Below, one piece after another: positions 32,072 through 38,298 of a stretch of DNA of 64,000 nucleotides. The notes beneath the pieces were generated by a model. That model was given only the letters and a program-made list of their open reading frames with translations, did no database searches and was not told the DNA's origin. Every line of letters starts with the position of its first letter. The first letter of the stretch is position 1. Made by a program: the position numbers and the translations under genes. Source of the stretch: an uncultured SAR86 cluster bacterium (lineage in GTDB: Bacteria; Pseudomonadota; Gammaproteobacteria; Magnimaribacterales; D2472); contig CACJBC010000001.1 in the NCBI GenBank assembly GCA_902591565.1, positions 34,717 to 98,716 on the forward strand, written 5' to 3'.

Positions 32072-33019
32072 TTAGGCTTTGATTAGAGGATTATGCTTCA
32101 CTTTATCTGGTATATCTTCTGCACCTGGAACACCTCTTGCAATTAGGAAAGGTCTTAGAGCTTCAACTGCCTTGGGCTCATCATAATGACCAATTCCTGG
32201 ATGAAGATGATGTATAAAGTGAAGTTGCATTGAATGATTTAAATATCTAGGCATCCAATGGCTCCAAAATCTTGTATCTTTATATCTTCCTGTTTCAGTT
32301 TGATAATGAGGATACCAGCTGAAAAAGACTGAAAGATAAATAACTCCAAACTTACTTGGCAGCCACCATAATAAAAGTGTCTCTAAAGGAAAAAATACAA
32401 CTAAAGTTAAAAGAATTACTCTATATAACACTCCTATATTCAAACCTTTATTAAACGATTTCATAAATGCTTTATCATTTTCATAGATTTTAGCTATTGC
32501 TTGGTATTTAGATATGCCTGCTTGAGTGGCAACAATAACCTCCCAAAGAGATTTAGCAGATGCAGTATCATGATCTGGGTCTTTTTCTGGATTATTCGTA
32601 TAAGCATGATGCTTCATATGAGTAGCTCTCATCACATCATGAGGAAACATAAGAGTTATTAATGTGTAATGGCTTACGAATGAATCGATCCAACGTCTTT
32701 TTGGATTGCCTCTAGAATAATTACCATGCTGTGCTTCATGCGAAGGCAGGTATGCAAAACAGGCACAAATAGTTGCAATTACAAAACCAAGTAATAAAGA
32801 AATATACCCATTAATAACTAATGGCCAAAGAGAAAGCCAAACCGTTGCTTGACCAACTCCGATTAAGATCATCTCCCATTGAAATCTTTTTGAGAAACTT
32901 CTAGCGATCTCTTTTTCTTTTTCAAAGGAAAATTCTTCTGAAATCTTTTCTAGATTTTCCATAACCATGTTCCTCTTATCTTTGCTATGAGGCCAAGACA
33001 TAAACCTAATATGTAACAA
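32072..33019 (-). CDS. Membrane di-iron fatty-acid desaturase / CrtW-like ketolase-hydroxylase family protein
   Basis: Three His boxes (HEAQH, HMKHHAYTNNPEKDPD, HFIHHLH) and four or more TM helices. The box-2 context resembles CrtW (HMAHHRHAGTDDDPDF). The probable start is MVMENLEK at 32968/32962 rather than 33019. Substrate is unknown. Confidence 0.6.
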   Translation of the reverse strand: MLHIRFMSWPHSKDKRNMVMENLEKISEEFSFEKEKEIARSFSKRFQWEMILIGVGQATVWLSLWPLVINGYISLLLGFVIATICACFAYLPSHEAQHGNYSRGNPKRRWIDSFVSHYTLITLMFPHDVMRATHMKHHAYTNNPEKDPDHDTASAKSLWEVIVATQAGISKYQAIAKIYENDKAFMKSFNKGLNIGVLYRVILLTLVVFFPLETLLLWWLPSKFGVIYLSVFFSWYPHYQTETGRYKDTRFWSHWMPRYLNHSMQLHFIHHLHPGIGHYDEPKAVEALRPFLIARGVPGAEDIPDKVKHNPLIKA

Positions 33020-33150
33020 TAAATAGTAATATCAGTAAATTGATAGCGAATAGCTATAGCATTAAAGACACTTCCCCAAAAAATTAGGCCAAACCATACC
33101 ATGTTCCAATTGGAAATATGATCTGTAAGAATTATCTTAAATTTATCCAT
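32950..33150 (-). CDS. Possible 66-aa two-TM membrane protein upstream of and overlapping the desaturase-like gene
   Basis: There are two hydrophobic stretches (MVWFGLIFWGSVFNAIAI, ITIYCYILGLCLGLIA). It occupies an otherwise empty 230-nt gap. No homology was recognised, so it could be spurious. Confidence 0.2.
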   Translation of the reverse strand: MDKFKIILTDHISNWNMVWFGLIFWGSVFNAIAIRYQFTDITIYCYILGLCLGLIAKIRGTWLWKI

Positions 33151-33253
33151 TTTATTAATTATTTACTATTTTAGCCAAAAATATGAAGCAAAATATGCAT
33201 TAATTATCGCAGCATTAACAAAATATGATAAATATTGCACAAAATAAGCAAGA

Positions 33254-34081
33254 TTACTGAAAAATATCCAGATTTCTTACTAAGCTTTTTATGCTTAGAG
33301 TCTTTTCGTCATGTTTTGAGGTTTCAACAAGACATTGTCTCCATATGTAGTCTAAAAAATAAGTAAATTTGACCCAGTTTTTTAATTTTTCTGTTTCTAA
33401 TTGAAAATCTTCCTTATAGCCATTTAATAAATAACCAATCTCTTCGTTATTAAGATTATAGGAAGATATTATTGATGCTATATCAAAATAAGGACTATTA
33501 GCTGATGCGTATTCCCAATCTATAAAAAAATGTTTTTTATTCCAAAAAATATTTTCAGGATTCAAATCATTATGAGAAAAAATTAGGGATTCATTTCTGT
33601 CCAAAATAGAATCGAAAATTTTAAAGCCATGATTCAAATACCAATCATCTTTAATTTTGTTTTTAAGAATATCTCTATAATTTTCTATAGCATTTTCAAA
33701 ATTATTAATTTCAACATTATTAATTTTTATTTCATGAACTTTTTTAATTTCTTTTCCTAAAGAAATTAAACTTTCTTTTTTTTTAATTTCTGAATTTGAA
33801 ATTTTTTTTCCCTCACTGAATTTTCTTATTAGGATTCCATTGTCAAAATCATGATATAAAATATTTTGATTTCTGATTTCTGTTTCTAAAAATTTAAGTA
33901 TTTGCCATTCAGAAACTCTTCGCTTTTTTAACCAATTTGGTAGATCAATATCAACCCTTATTACAGATTTAATATCATTAAAATTACAAAGAAAAGTTTG
34001 CGAAATAAGATCAATTTTTATAGGTGAAATAATTTCAATTTTTTCATCTATCGAAGCAATTTGTTTATCAATTTTAGGCAT
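33254..34081 (-). CDS. Choline-kinase/APH-fold kinase, thiamine kinase (ThiK/YcfN)-like
   Basis: Brenner/APH motifs SHNDLNPENIFW (HxDxxxxN) and IDWEYA. It is 275 aa (E. coli ThiK is ~274 aa). It is the last gene of a TPP-riboswitch operon and overlaps the PnuC-like gene by 8 nt. Confidence 0.55.
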   Translation of the reverse strand: MPKIDKQIASIDEKIEIISPIKIDLISQTFLCNFNDIKSVIRVDIDLPNWLKKRRVSEWQILKFLETEIRNQNILYHDFDNGILIRKFSEGKKISNSEIKKKESLISLGKEIKKVHEIKINNVEINNFENAIENYRDILKNKIKDDWYLNHGFKIFDSILDRNESLIFSHNDLNPENIFWNKKHFFIDWEYASANSPYFDIASIISSYNLNNEEIGYLLNGYKEDFQLETEKLKNWVKFTYFLDYIWRQCLVETSKHDEKTLSIKSLVRNLDIFQ

Positions 34082-34676
34082 CGATTTTGTCTTTCATTTC
34101 AGTCCAAGATTTATAACCAAAATAAATAATTATTAAGTACACAAAAAATAATAATGAAGTTAAAAATAGTCCCCTTGAATAAAATAAAAATACAGAAACT
34201 GCGTCTATTACAAACCAATAAATCCAATTTTCTAAAAGCCTCTTTGCAACCATATAAGTTGTTACAATCGCTCCCCAGGTTGTCAGCGAATCAATAAAAG
34301 GTAAGGCGGCATTTGTAAAATTTTCAAGAGCCCATCCTGATGTTAGTGCTAATAAAAAGATTAACGAAATTGCTTTGATGTGTTGATTTCTATTCCACGT
34401 TTTTACGAGAAATTTTGAATTGTCCGGTAAAGATTTTCTCCACTGTGTCCACCCATAAACAGCCATAATACAATAAAATATTTGCAAGCCTGCTTCCATA
34501 TATAGACCTGCTGAATACATTACAAAGAAATATAAAAAAGAACTAATAAAAGCGGCAAACCAACAACTTATGTTCTGTTTTACTGCTAATAGTAAATAGG
34601 CAATTGCAAGAATAACGGCAGTAGGTTCTATCCAGCTAGTATTGATAAGATTAGAAATCATATCTAACTGTAACAC
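34074..34676 (-). CDS. PnuC-family transporter, predicted thiamine-type (PnuT)
   Basis: 200 aa, ~7 TM helices, PnuC-like YGWTQW motif. It is co-transcribed with a TonB receptor behind a THI-box. Confidence 0.7.
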   Translation of the reverse strand: MLQLDMISNLINTSWIEPTAVILAIAYLLLAVKQNISCWFAAFISSFLYFFVMYSAGLYMEAGLQIFYCIMAVYGWTQWRKSLPDNSKFLVKTWNRNQHIKAISLIFLLALTSGWALENFTNAALPFIDSLTTWGAIVTTYMVAKRLLENWIYWFVIDAVSVFLFYSRGLFLTSLLFFVYLIIIYFGYKSWTEMKDKIDA

Positions 34677-36744
34677 CTAGATGTCTGGGATCACCATGTC
34701 TTTCATAGAGTGTATCAATAAAATTTGGAGCTTCGTTACCAAAGTAAAAACCTCTGGTTGAATAGTACTCATCAAAAATATTTCTTCCCCAAATTGAATA
34801 CGTCCACTGACCACTAAAATAGCTATAGTTTATATTTGTTAGGAAATATGATTTAGATTTGTTGTCATGAGAATCAGAATAGTAAAAGCTACTTTTACCT
34901 ACTATATCAAATGATAAATTTGATTGTTCTGAGGGGTACCAATTAAATCCAATAGCATAACTTTTCTCAGGAGCATGAGCTTGTGCCCTTCCCTCAATTT
35001 CGGGTCTAGACTTCCAGCTTTTAATCTCAGTTTTGAGCAATCCAAAATTAATAAACGTATCTATGTTTTCAGACAGCTGTATATCCATTTCTAGTTCAAT
35101 TCCGTTATTAACTCCCTCTGCAGCATTTTGAGTTAAAAATGTAAATGTATTTGGATTATTTGGGTCAACCTGAGTTGATATTAAGACCTGCTGATTTCTC
35201 CTGTCTGAATGAAAAATTACAGCAGCTAAATTCAAATCAAATTTTTCAAATTTTGAATTAAGTCCAATTTCATAATTAATCAAAAATTCGGGATCATAAT
35301 AAAGATTGCCGTTTTGTGAATTTGGATCAAGCCCAAGATTTAAATTAAAACCTCCTTGGTTATATCCTCTTGCAACACTAAAAAAGATATTTGTATCTTT
35401 ATCTAAAATTTTATTTATCGATAGTTTGCCGCCTAAAATTTTATCTGAAGGGTTGAGCGACTCACCAAGCGAATCCGAATATTGTGATTCTGAGTCCTCC
35501 CAACGAGCACCAATAGTTAGTTTTGTTGATTGATTTATTAAATAATTTAAATTTCCAAAAATAGAAAAATTATTTACTAAAAAATTGCTTGATAGTGAAC
35601 TCTCATCAACATATGGAACCTCATAATACAATGGATCAAAATAGATACCGTCATCTTTTTTAAGATTGTCCTCTTTTGATTCAAAAAAATTCACCCCAAT
35701 GACCCATTCGTATTGTTTATTTATATTCAAATCAGCTGCATCTGATAAAAATCTAAATTCTTGACTAAAAGTTTCTCTGAATCTTAAAGTTTCTGAAAAA
35801 TAATCATATATGTATGGAGCATGAGTATCAGAATTACCCCAGTCTGCATCATAACTGAGAACAACATCAGTATCTGTTATGCTTGTTAAGGACTGAAATT
35901 CAAAATTATTTGCCTGATAATAAAATTTTATACCATAAGCGTTAGTTTTTTGAGAATCCATGCCAGGTCTGTCCGAGAGAGTGTTTAGACTTCCATCAAT
36001 CGTCCAAATATCAGCAGGATCATCGAGATGTATTTGAGTTGCTAAAAATTTTAAGATTGATTTATCATTTATTTCCCAATTAGCCTTAATTCTAAAAGTA
36101 GATTCGTCTTTCTTTGAAGTGTCTGATTTACCAGAATATAAATTTTTTCTAAATCCATCTGAATAATCTTGTCTTAAGGCAATTCTGTAGGTTAATCCAT
36201 CAATTTTTGATGGTCCGCCAAAAGCTATGCCGGTGTTGATGGTTCCATAAGCTCCCGTTGTGATTTCACTTACTCCCTCATATACTTCTGTTGGCTCTTT
36301 AGTTTTTATATATATCAGGCCTGCCATGGCATTTGATCCAATTCTGGAACCTTGTGGGCCTCTATGAACTTCAATTTGATCAACATCAAAAGTTGTTGCT
36401 ATTCCGCCTTGTCCAGAATAATCAATGTCATCAATTAAAAATCCAACTGCAGAGTTTGGAGTTCTTTCATAGCCAGACCTTTCACCAATGCCTCTTATTT
36501 GAAAGTGTCTAGCTCTTGAATCACTTGCTGCAAAATTTAAATTTGGTATAAGGTAAGATAAATTCTCAAAATGCTTTATTGGTGCAAGCTCAAGCTCTTT
36601 TGAACTTAATACTAATACACTTGAGTCTTCTTCAACGAGCTTAATCTCTCTCCAGTCACCTTTGACTATTACTTCTTCAATGTCTGCTGACACGAAAGAA
36701 ATTAAAAAGAAAAAAAGAAAAAAATTAGTTTTAATGGTTTTCAT
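34651..36744 (-). CDS. TonB-dependent outer-membrane receptor (TPP-riboswitch regulated)
   Basis: Signal peptide, plug domain (IEEVIVKG... FQIRGIG... IDQIEVHRGPQGSRIGSNAMAGLIYIKT), a long beta-barrel and a terminal aromatic residue (VTVRYDF). Confidence 0.9.
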   Translation of the reverse strand: MKTIKTNFFLFFFLISFVSADIEEVIVKGDWREIKLVEEDSSVLVLSSKELELAPIKHFENLSYLIPNLNFAASDSRARHFQIRGIGERSGYERTPNSAVGFLIDDIDYSGQGGIATTFDVDQIEVHRGPQGSRIGSNAMAGLIYIKTKEPTEVYEGVSEITTGAYGTINTGIAFGGPSKIDGLTYRIALRQDYSDGFRKNLYSGKSDTSKKDESTFRIKANWEINDKSILKFLATQIHLDDPADIWTIDGSLNTLSDRPGMDSQKTNAYGIKFYYQANNFEFQSLTSITDTDVVLSYDADWGNSDTHAPYIYDYFSETLRFRETFSQEFRFLSDAADLNINKQYEWVIGVNFFESKEDNLKKDDGIYFDPLYYEVPYVDESSLSSNFLVNNFSIFGNLNYLINQSTKLTIGARWEDSESQYSDSLGESLNPSDKILGGKLSINKILDKDTNIFFSVARGYNQGGFNLNLGLDPNSQNGNLYYDPEFLINYEIGLNSKFEKFDLNLAAVIFHSDRRNQQVLISTQVDPNNPNTFTFLTQNAAEGVNNGIELEMDIQLSENIDTFINFGLLKTEIKSWKSRPEIEGRAQAHAPEKSYAIGFNWYPSEQSNLSFDIVGKSSFYYSDSHDNKSKSYFLTNINYSYFSGQWTYSIWGRNIFDEYYSTRGFYFGNEAPNFIDTLYERHGDPRHLGVTVRYDF

Positions 36745-36827
36745 GCAATTCCTCCGCCATTATTGTATGGATCAGGTTCAAAGGGTTTCTTGTAAAAAGA
36801 TCTCAGGTTTTAGCCACCCCTTTGCAG
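36744..36827 (-). promoter_or_regulatory. TPP (THI-box) riboswitch
   Basis: The minus-strand RNA is CUGCAAAGGGGUGGCUAAAACCUGAGAUCUUUUUACAAGAAACCCUUUGAACCUGAUCCAUACAAUAAUGGCGGAGGAAUUGCAUG. The conserved blocks GGGGUG, CUGAGA, ACCCUUUGAACCUGAUC and the CCAU...AUGG hairpin plus GCGGAGGAA match the THI element consensus. P1 (UGCAA/UUGCA) reaches the start codon, and the SD GGAGGA lies inside the aptamer. Confidence 0.85.
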
Positions 36828-36868
36828 TTAGATTTTATGATATAAAATTTTATTTTATTGCGCTATAA

Positions 36869-38185
36869 CTAATTTGAAGAATCTTCACTTAAATCAATTT
36901 GAAAGGTTTCTGTTAGAAACAAAACTGATATCAAAGTTAAAAATGAAGCAAAAGAAATATAGACCGATACCCAGATTATTCCATAGTCATTCCACAATAA
37001 GGCAGCTATTGTGGGAGCAAATGCTCCACCTAAAATAGCTCCAAATTGATATCCAAGCGTTGCTCCAGAATATCTGACTTCAGTACTAAATAACTCAGTG
37101 AAAAAAGCAGCCTGGGGACCATACATCATTGAAACAAAAATAAGACCAATACTTATAGCTAAAACAATCAGCCAAAAATTACCAGTATCAACTAGTGGGA
37201 AAATTACAAAACTCCATATAGCAGTAAGAATTGCACCAAGCATAAATACACCCTTTCTTCCGTATCTATCTGAATAAGATGAAAAAAAGAATTGGAATGG
37301 AATCATTATTCCTGAACCAATAAGAACAGCAACTAACATATCGTCTCTGGTAACTTCAGTTGTAGCTACGCCGTATGCCAGCAGAAAGGCTATTAATATA
37401 TAAAAAGTAACTTGAATAGAAAGAAATGCGCCTGCTGCAAGAACTATTTTAGATGGATATTTCTTAACAGCTTCAATGATAGGCGATCTTTTAATTTCTA
37501 CTTTATTGCCAATCTTTCTAGATGCCTCAAGTTCTTTGAATGCTTTCGTATCTTCTAGGTTTAATTGTATGTACATACTTATGCCAATCAAAATAGCGCT
37601 TGCTAAAAATGGAATGCGCCAACCCCAGGCAAAAAATGATTCTTCAGATACCATTGAGCTTGTAACAATAAAAGCTAAATTTGCCAAAATAACACCAACA
37701 GGCACTCCTGCTTGAGCAAATGCTCCGTAATAACCCCTTTGATTTGCTGGAGCACTTTCCGTAACTAGCAACATAGCTCCACCCCATTGACCGCCTATAG
37801 CTAAGCCTTGGGCAAATCTTAAGATAGTCAATAATATCGGGGCTGTAACGCCTATCATGGTATAAGTTGGAAGTAGTCCTATTAAGGTTGAGGACACTCC
37901 CATTAAAATCAATGCAATTACCAAAGTCTTTTTTCGACCAACTTTGTCTCCGTAATGACCAAATACTATTCCGCCAATAGGTCTAGCTATAAATCCAGCT
38001 GCAAAAGTAAGCAAAGACAAAATCAAGGCTGTTGATGGAGTGGTCTCACCAAAGAATACGGTTGGAAAGATTAAAGCCGCTGAAGCACCATATAAAAAAA
38101 AGTCATACCATTCAATACTTGTTCCAGCTAAAGAAGTAAGTGCAACTTTTTTCATATTTGCTGTTGATAGATTTGTTTGATTCAT
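36869..38185 (-). CDS. MFS transporter, metabolite:H+ symporter (MHS; ProP/KgtP/ShiA-like) family
   Basis: LAGTSIEWYDFFLYGASAAL, GHYGDKVGRKK, 12 TM helices. The ATG at 38185 (MNQTNL) is preferred to the track start at 38275, whose extra 30 aa are not family-like. Confidence 0.8.
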   Translation of the reverse strand: MNQTNLSTANMKKVALTSLAGTSIEWYDFFLYGASAALIFPTVFFGETTPSTALILSLLTFAAGFIARPIGGIVFGHYGDKVGRKKTLVIALILMGVSSTLIGLLPTYTMIGVTAPILLTILRFAQGLAIGGQWGGAMLLVTESAPANQRGYYGAFAQAGVPVGVILANLAFIVTSSMVSEESFFAWGWRIPFLASAILIGISMYIQLNLEDTKAFKELEASRKIGNKVEIKRSPIIEAVKKYPSKIVLAAGAFLSIQVTFYILIAFLLAYGVATTEVTRDDMLVAVLIGSGIMIPFQFFFSSYSDRYGRKGVFMLGAILTAIWSFVIFPLVDTGNFWLIVLAISIGLIFVSMMYGPQAAFFTELFSTEVRYSGATLGYQFGAILGGAFAPTIAALLWNDYGIIWVSVYISFASFLTLISVLFLTETFQIDLSEDSSN

Positions 38186-38298
38186 ATTAAAAGCTAGTAT
38201 GCCAAATTTTTCATAAAGTAAAAGTGAGGGTATTGTTAATTCTAGAGTTAGAATAAGTAAAAATAACTGAGTCAATTATTAAGCTTAGTCCAATCTTA

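Follow-up and report, generated by a model that had tools for sequence, protein, structure and literature searches.

Comparative genomics of THI elements, the aptamers of thiamine pyrophosphate (TPP) riboswitches, reportedly linked PnuT-type transporters to outer-membrane receptors as early as the study of Rodionov et al. in JBC in 2002. In Bacteroides, where TPP riboswitches control them, the outer-membrane receptor OMthi and the transporter PnuT have been genetically proven (Costliow and Degnan 2017, PMC5613172). PnuT of Shewanella woodyi is a facilitator with a Kd of 12 µM and a Km of 14 µM that binds neither thiamine monophosphate (TMP) nor TPP, and the WxxWxxxD motif has been tied to substrate binding (Jaehme et al. 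2018, PMC5749112). Here we describe a locus of this kind, in which a TPP riboswitch is followed by three overlapping genes that encode a TonB-dependent receptor, a PnuC-family channel and a kinase. It lies on a 64,000-nt stretch of DNA (the window) of an uncultured SAR86 cluster bacterium (GenBank assembly GCA_902591565.1, contig CACJBC010000001.1, positions 34,717 to 98,716).

SAR86-type bacteria rank with the most abundant heterotrophs of ocean surface waters. They have been described as being without thiamine (vitamin B1) synthesis, and the first SAR86 genome paper identified no vitamin transporter except that for B12 (PMC3358033). The receptor gene omr1 was reported beside a thiamine diphosphate (TDP) riboswitch in two SAR86 clusters of metagenome-assembled genomes (PMC10881298), and marine B1 work depicts omr1 as a transporter whose specificity is unclear (PMC12442306). 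Like omr1, the receptor gene of our locus encodes a TonB-dependent receptor, is linked to a riboswitch and comes from a small marine gammaproteobacterium. Neither of the two marine B1 studies counts pnuT or a kinase, and PMC10881298 deals with omr1 without any mention of them.

The Bacteroides OMthi-pnuT-tnr3 system and our locus have in common the TPP riboswitch, the TonB-dependent receptor, PnuT and a thiamine-phosphorylating enzyme, joined in a single operon in most genomes. They differ in the trap: in Bacteroides it is Tnr3/thiamine pyrophosphokinase (TPK), which leads to TPP in one step, whereas here a kinase of the APH/choline-kinase fold and ThiL would take two steps. Moreover, Bacteroides keeps the de novo synthesis of thiamine, and the source genome of the window is without it.

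We read the locus as an operon by which a streamlined marine gammaproteobacterium, auxotrophic for B1, scavenges thiamine, and we give this reading a probability of roughly 0.8. It is carried by the riboswitch, by the conservation of the operon behind it and by the thiamine pathway genes that the source genome and its relatives have kept or lack.

A TPP riboswitch that contains the ribosome-binding site

The Rfam scan of the whole window gave two matches above the gathering score, one tRNA and one TPP riboswitch aptamer (RF00059). The aptamer matched the full model (1-105) with 66.0 bits against a gathering score of 54.3 (E 1e-10), and it is present in a single copy in the 1.07 Mb source genome. 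It lies directly 5' of the receptor gene, where the first-pass annotation, made by a model from the DNA letters, had placed a THI-box aptamer and had named this covariance-model search as the check. All the aptamer blocks listed in that annotation were located in the sequence: GGGGUG, CUGAGA, ACCCUUUGAACCUGAUC, the CCAU/AUGG strands of helix P5, and GCGGAGGAA. Helix P1 pairs UGCAA (36826-36822) with UUGCA (36748-36744).

For comparison, we used a family sample of 101 genomes, from which 18 loci were fetched in the six genera that carry the operon. Among the 19 family sequences that were aligned, the pyrimidine sensor CUGAGA and the pyrophosphate sensor ACCUGAUC...GCG were both invariant. The 19 helix pairs held standard pairs in all 360 alignment cells (100%), and in a control with slid partners the pairing fell to 32-58%. 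Three pairs were changed on both sides, one in P1 and two in P5. The compensatory change in P1, from C-G to U-A, was found in two loci of different genera, while both compensatory pairs of P5 occurred in genus g5.

The Shine-Dalgarno (SD) sequence of the receptor gene, GGAGGA, is part of the aptamer itself: its GAGG forms the 3' strand of helix P4, the partner of which is the CCU of ACCUGAUC. The final A of the P1 3' strand is at the same time the A of the receptor ATG (36744-36742), so that both overlaps stand as first described. The block GGCGGAGGAAU was invariant in 19/19 family loci, and the P1 3' strand ended on the A of the AUG in 15 of the 19 sequences; in the other four, all from genus g5, P1 has one more pair and is directly followed by the AUG. 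Since the same arrangement of aptamer, SD and AUG recurs in 18/18 related loci, it is beyond chance.

No terminator-like site was detected on the minus strand of positions 32900-37000, again in agreement with the first-pass annotation, and there is no spacer between aptamer and AUG, so neither a terminator nor a sequestor hairpin is possible there. One candidate terminator, a hairpin of A and U only followed by a U-run within the signal-peptide codons, was rejected, since it lacks a G+C stem and shows no conservation among relatives. Most of the loci found outside the family have 40-130 nt between aptamer and start codon, along with sequences that resemble terminators or sequestors. In two non-family loci (L073 and L074), the 3' end of the Rfam match takes in the start codon.

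This anatomy is best matched by a TPP riboswitch that would act by direct occlusion, without a separate expression platform. TPP riboswitches are treated in a 2024 review as the model of the "strand exchange" group; "direct occlusion" is kept there mainly for small pseudoknot classes and is not assigned to the TPP class, though the same review states that one class can use several mechanisms (PMC10907184). The leader resembles the SAM-II, SAM-III and preQ1-I/II riboswitches of that review in that the ribosome-binding site makes part of the aptamer and no second structure is involved. Those classes are mostly small pseudoknots, whereas here a full-size TPP aptamer offers its own P4 3' strand as the SD.

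Conservation and layout of the operon

The gene order receptor-channel-kinase was found in 18/18 family loci, and all 18 had an RF00059 match above cut-off directly upstream. Within the family sample, the kinase and the channel were each detected in 67/101 genomes, which belong to the same six genera. Outside the family, 41 of 400 sampled genomes of the class had a Pnu relative. The channel was preceded by RF00059 and a TonB-dependent receptor gene in 12 of the 13 best non-family gammaproteobacterial loci, and a gene of the APH/choline-kinase fold was located downstream in 7 of those 12. This type of operon is widespread in Gammaproteobacteria and is not special to the lineage of the window.

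The channel and kinase genes overlap by 8 nt (ATGCCTAA), as the first-pass annotation had stated. Its value of 26 nt for the overlap between the receptor and channel genes holds only for a start at GTG 34676; with the in-frame ATG at 34661 as start, the overlap is 11 nt, the more likely value, because the gene calls of close relatives show an 11-nt overlap. We found no convincing SD of its own at the channel gene or at the kinase gene. Given this and the overlaps, translational coupling of both genes to the receptor gene is probable.

Thiamine pathway genes in the source genome and its relatives

The genes thiC, thiE, thiM and TPK (PF04263) were not found in the source genome, which fits the B1 auxotrophy that had been predicted from the locus alone. 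A weak ThiG match (25.7 bits) and a weak ThiD match (29.5 bits) were rejected, as they corresponded to HisA/F and NAD(P)HX dehydratase, respectively. The gene thiL, which the first-pass annotation had expected elsewhere in the genome, was identified on contig C20 (234 bits, cut-off 184).

Across the family sample, ThiL was present in 100/101 genomes and TPK in 0/101. ThiE-like genes were found in 25/101 genomes: 24 were full length (E 1e-26 to 1e-39), and the 25th match was weak and partial (E 5.8e-4). ThiE and the channel were together in no genome of the sample. The ThiE-like genes were distributed over four genera that have neither channel nor kinase, plus one genome of genus g9 (G089) that is also without both; this genome has switched to ThiE. 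Two solutions are seen within one family of genomes of about 1.2 Mb, with six genera that have the operon and no ThiE, and four that have ThiE and no operon.

ThiL needs TMP, and ThiE can provide it in 25 genomes. In the remaining lineages, the operon kinase is the only candidate supplier of TMP. Our strongest argument for reading the kinase as a thiamine kinase is this one, that where ThiL is kept and neither ThiE nor TPK is found, TMP has to be supplied in some other way. The gene content supports a route in which the operon kinase would convert thiamine to TMP and ThiL would convert TMP to TPP.

The outer-membrane receptor

The receptor contains the Pfam domains Plug (42.6 bits) and TonB_dep_Rec_b-barrel (86.8 bits), both above their cut-offs. 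Its N-terminus resembles a signal peptide and is followed by a TonB-box-like stretch (DIEEVIVKG), and its C-terminal residue is Phe. Two TonB_C matches were found elsewhere in the genome. The assignment to the TonB-dependent receptors made at first sight is thereby borne out. A grouping with siderophore or cobalamin receptors, which had been named as an outcome that would count against a thiamine receptor, was not observed: the receptor stayed below every NCBIfam cut-off for siderophore, haem and B12 receptors (FepA, Fiu, IreA, haem, BtuB), with at most 44.3 bits against cut-offs of 316-1197, and it scored 23.3 bits with the BtuB model (cut-off 599.7).

The receptor is a candidate thiamine receptor of the Omr1/OMthi type, and the specificity of omr1-type receptors has been called unclear (PMC12442306). 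The module might import a phosphorylated or precursor vitamer and not intact thiamine, that is, TMP or TPP at the receptor, or hydroxymethylpyrimidine (HMP), aminomethylpyrimidine (AmMP) or carboxythiazole (cHET). A hint at the processing of phosphate esters in some lineages comes from the non-family locus L080, in which pnuT is followed not by the kinase gene but by the gene of a HAD-family hydrolase (HAD_2, 102 bits; L080:1772-2443, minus strand); this hydrolase might act on thiamine phosphates. We hold vitamer import to be quite unlikely here, since the genes that would use precursors (thiD, thiM and thiE) were not found in the genome, the characterised PnuT binds neither of the two phosphates (PMC5749112) and the operon encodes no phosphatase.

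The channel

The channel, taken as PnuC-like in the first-pass annotation, matches PF04973 with 167 bits and is encoded in a single copy in the genome. The motif WxxW(x)3D/N of the sixth transmembrane helix is present as WIYWFVID (residues 151-158 if the GTG is taken as the start). With PnuT of S. woodyi the channel has in common PF04973, the WxxWxxxD motif and a co-located kinase that fits metabolic trapping, comparable to PnuC/NadR (PMC5749112). This likeness is one of family and motif; among gammaproteobacterial PnuT relatives from outside the family, the best have 38-49% identity to the channel. The TPP-riboswitch context at all loci and a presence complementary to that of ThiE suggest that the channel may be PnuT, with thiamine as its putative substrate.

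The kinase

The kinase matches two Pfam families, PF01633 (Choline_kinase; 57 bits, cut-off 29) and PF01636 (APH; 37.6 bits, cut-off 23.2), and carries the catalytic motifs HNDLNPEN (170) and DWE (188). In the 18 operon kinases, H170, D172, N177 and D188 were invariant and E190 was present in at least 90%, so these proteins should be active enzymes. The kinase gene is a single copy, and E. coli ThiK as query found no other relative in the genome.

Several results relate the kinase to ThiK. A profile of the 18 kinases aligned with E. coli ThiK over 230 columns (hhalign probability 95.3%, E 2.3e-8), the ThiK model matched 18/18 operon kinases at E 0.001 or better (best E 4.9e-25), and close homologues are labelled "thiamine kinase-like enzyme" by JGI pipelines. 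The kinase and E. coli ThiK/YcfN (EC 2.7.1.89) belong to the same superfamily, have similar lengths (275 and 274 aa, respectively) and have the HxDxxxxN and DWE motifs in common. E. coli thiK is not riboswitch-controlled and has no adjoining transporter gene.

Across the family, the kinases are 27-75% identical in sequence, the receptors 59-85% and the channels 52-90%. The kinase is by a wide margin the fastest-evolving of the three proteins, yet its catalytic motifs are kept and most of their residues are invariant. The kinase match was split or had several in-frame stops in three relatives (G078, G079 and G091): it fell into three pieces in G079 and contained one TAG and three TAA in G091. 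These could be decaying genes or assembly errors.

Evidence that weighs against thiamine scavenging

A number of observations weigh against reading the locus as a thiamine scavenging operon, and the first of them concern the kinase. With 48.9 bits it fell far short of the cut-off of the ThiK equivalog TIGR02721 (299.45), and the GntI model scored slightly above the ThiK model (56 bits), both being far below their NCBIfam cut-offs. BLASTP against ThiK of E. coli MG1655 gave 24% identity over 91 aa (E 0.001). The closest solved relative was the pneumococcal choline kinase LicA (4R77), with E 6.6e-6 for the single sequence and E 5.2e-29 for the profile, and the kinase is at least as close to LicA as to E. 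coli ThiK. By these scores it is a distant relative of ThiK within the APH/choline-kinase fold and not its equivalog. Of the earlier description as "ThiK-like", the fold stands and ThiK is among the best named bacterial matches, but the implied closeness does not (48.9 against 299 bits).

With LicA as the best solved relative, Choline_kinase as the best Pfam family and the ThiK cut-off widely missed, the enzyme might act on another alcohol (choline, ethanolamine, hydroxyethylthiazole, or a thiamine analogue or degradation product) and would then not be a thiamine trap. We regard this as unlikely. The gene stands behind pnuT in a TPP-riboswitch operon at every locus of the six genera and at 7 other gammaproteobacterial loci, and none of the adjacent genes is a lic-type or phospholipid gene. 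The cell could make no use of a thiazole or pyrimidine product without ThiE, ThiM and ThiD, none of which was found in the genome, and a kinase for another alcohol would leave ThiL without a source of TMP in 67 genomes. The position of the gene and the retained ThiL favour thiamine as its substrate.

The channel, for its part, passes the NCBIfam PnuC equivalog TIGR01528 with 84.3 bits (cut-off 42.45), so that automatic annotation would name it a nicotinamide riboside transporter and the operon would serve NAD salvage. This is highly improbable, as all 30 riboswitch-bearing loci examined have a TPP riboswitch and not NAD control, no NadR-type ribosylnicotinamide kinase is attached to the channel, and the operon is complementary to ThiE. 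The name would thus be wrong for a thiamine channel, and the PnuC model evidently captures PnuT too.

Two further points concern the expression of the operon. The thermodynamic fold of the isolated leader was no better than that of its shuffles (z-score 0.54), which would make switching dependent on a tertiary structure stabilised by the ligand. We do not hold this value against the identity of the riboswitch, since the leader is AU-rich and its fold gains stability from the ligand and from tertiary contacts. In addition, the promoter scan of the minus strand between the upstream major facilitator superfamily (MFS) gene and the aptamer returned no sigma-70-like site; the operon promoter may sit within the MFS gene, or read-through transcription from that gene may serve the operon.

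The last points concern the genomes. The source genome (34 contigs) is 83% complete, and the gene absences lean mainly on relatives that are 90-94% complete. The complementarity between operon and ThiE at genus level stands for few independent events in related genomes, with the one exception in genus g9.

Neighbouring genes and variation between lineages

The coordinates of the features are collected in Table 1. The G+C content of the source genome is 32.4%, the genomes of its relatives measure 0.9-1.5 Mb, and the 64-kb stretch was found to be present in metagenomes from seawater, estuary and marsh. These values agree with those of published SAR86 genomes (PMC3358033).

Table 1. Position of the operon features and of the adjacent genes in the window.
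Feature	Position	Strand	Basis
TPP riboswitch aptamer (THI element)	36732-36831	-	RF00059, 66.0 bits
Shine-Dalgarno GGAGGA of the receptor gene	36750-36755	-	within aptamer, 5 nt before AUG
TonB-dependent outer-membrane receptor, 697 aa, Omr1/OMthi-type candidate thiamine receptor	34651-36744	-	Pfam
PnuC-family inner-membrane facilitator, read as PnuT	34074-34661 (ATG) or 34074-34676 (GTG)	-	PF04973
APH/choline-kinase-fold kinase, 275 aa, candidate thiamine kinase (trap)	33254-34081	-	PF01633, PF01636
MFS metabolite/H+ symporter, shikimate-transporter-like	36869-38275	-	TIGR00883, 393 bits
66-aa open reading frame	32950-33150	-	
Fatty-acid-desaturase/CrtR-like membrane enzyme	32072-33019	-	

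The MFS gene upstream is on the same strand as the operon, and its end is separated from the aptamer by 37 nt. On the other side, the 66-aa open reading frame (ORF) begins about 100 nt beyond the kinase gene and the desaturase-like gene is also downstream; no terminator was found between the operon and these two. Both are syntenic in the close relatives L018, L019 and L036. They were left out of the module because this synteny does not extend to all genera.

Another conserved ORF, of 84-88 aa, was observed between the receptor gene and pnuT in 9/12 non-family riboswitch loci, for example L069:3200-3454 (+), L079:3152-3418 (+) and L075:3091-3354 (-), and in 6 more loci. It weakly matches the Pfam family YkoF (18-20 bits, cut-off 21). 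In the window's family, in which the genes overlap, no locus has this ORF, and a tblastn search of the window genome gave no copy of it.

Proposed mechanism and significance

The proposed mechanism would work as follows. At high TPP, the bound aptamer would close P4, which holds the SD, and P1, with the A of the AUG as its last base, and the ribosome would be blocked; through translational coupling, the channel and kinase genes would probably be silenced along with the receptor gene. At low TPP, the weak, AU-rich P1 and P4/P5 helices would open and all three proteins would be made. The receptor would then actively capture thiamine from seawater into the periplasm, PnuT would let it diffuse across the inner membrane, and the kinase would turn it into TMP, which would be trapped because it is not a ligand of PnuT-type channels; ThiL would finally form TPP. 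A concentrating step at the outer membrane and a trap in the cytoplasm would be sensible at scarce thiamine, because characterised PnuT has its Kd and Km in the micromolar range given above and does not bind TMP or TPP.

Much of this is already known, namely the trapping by a Pnu channel and a kinase, the B1 auxotrophy of SAR86, omr1 beside a riboswitch and the architecture in Bacteroides. The kinase family and the platform-less TPP switch are modestly new. We see somewhat better than even chances that two proposals hold jointly: that the kinase forms, within the choline-kinase/APH fold, a branch of its own that evolves fast, is not orthologous to E. coli ThiK and acts, in SAR86-type and other marine Gammaproteobacteria, as the real thiamine kinase and as the sole source of TMP for ThiL, and that the TPP switch works by direct occlusion through the aptamer's own P4 and P1 3' strands. 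If true, EC 2.7.1.89 would gain a second sequence family with this kinase. The leader, as a compact natural TPP switch without an expression platform, could serve studies of riboswitch mechanism as well as riboswitch design.

The general picture, known since the comparative genomics of THI elements, is unchanged. For the organism itself, the locus presents a complete candidate route from seawater thiamine to TPP, made up of receptor, channel, kinase and ThiL, and for the family, the uptake operon against ThiE offers a marker pair by which populations may be classed as B1 consumers.

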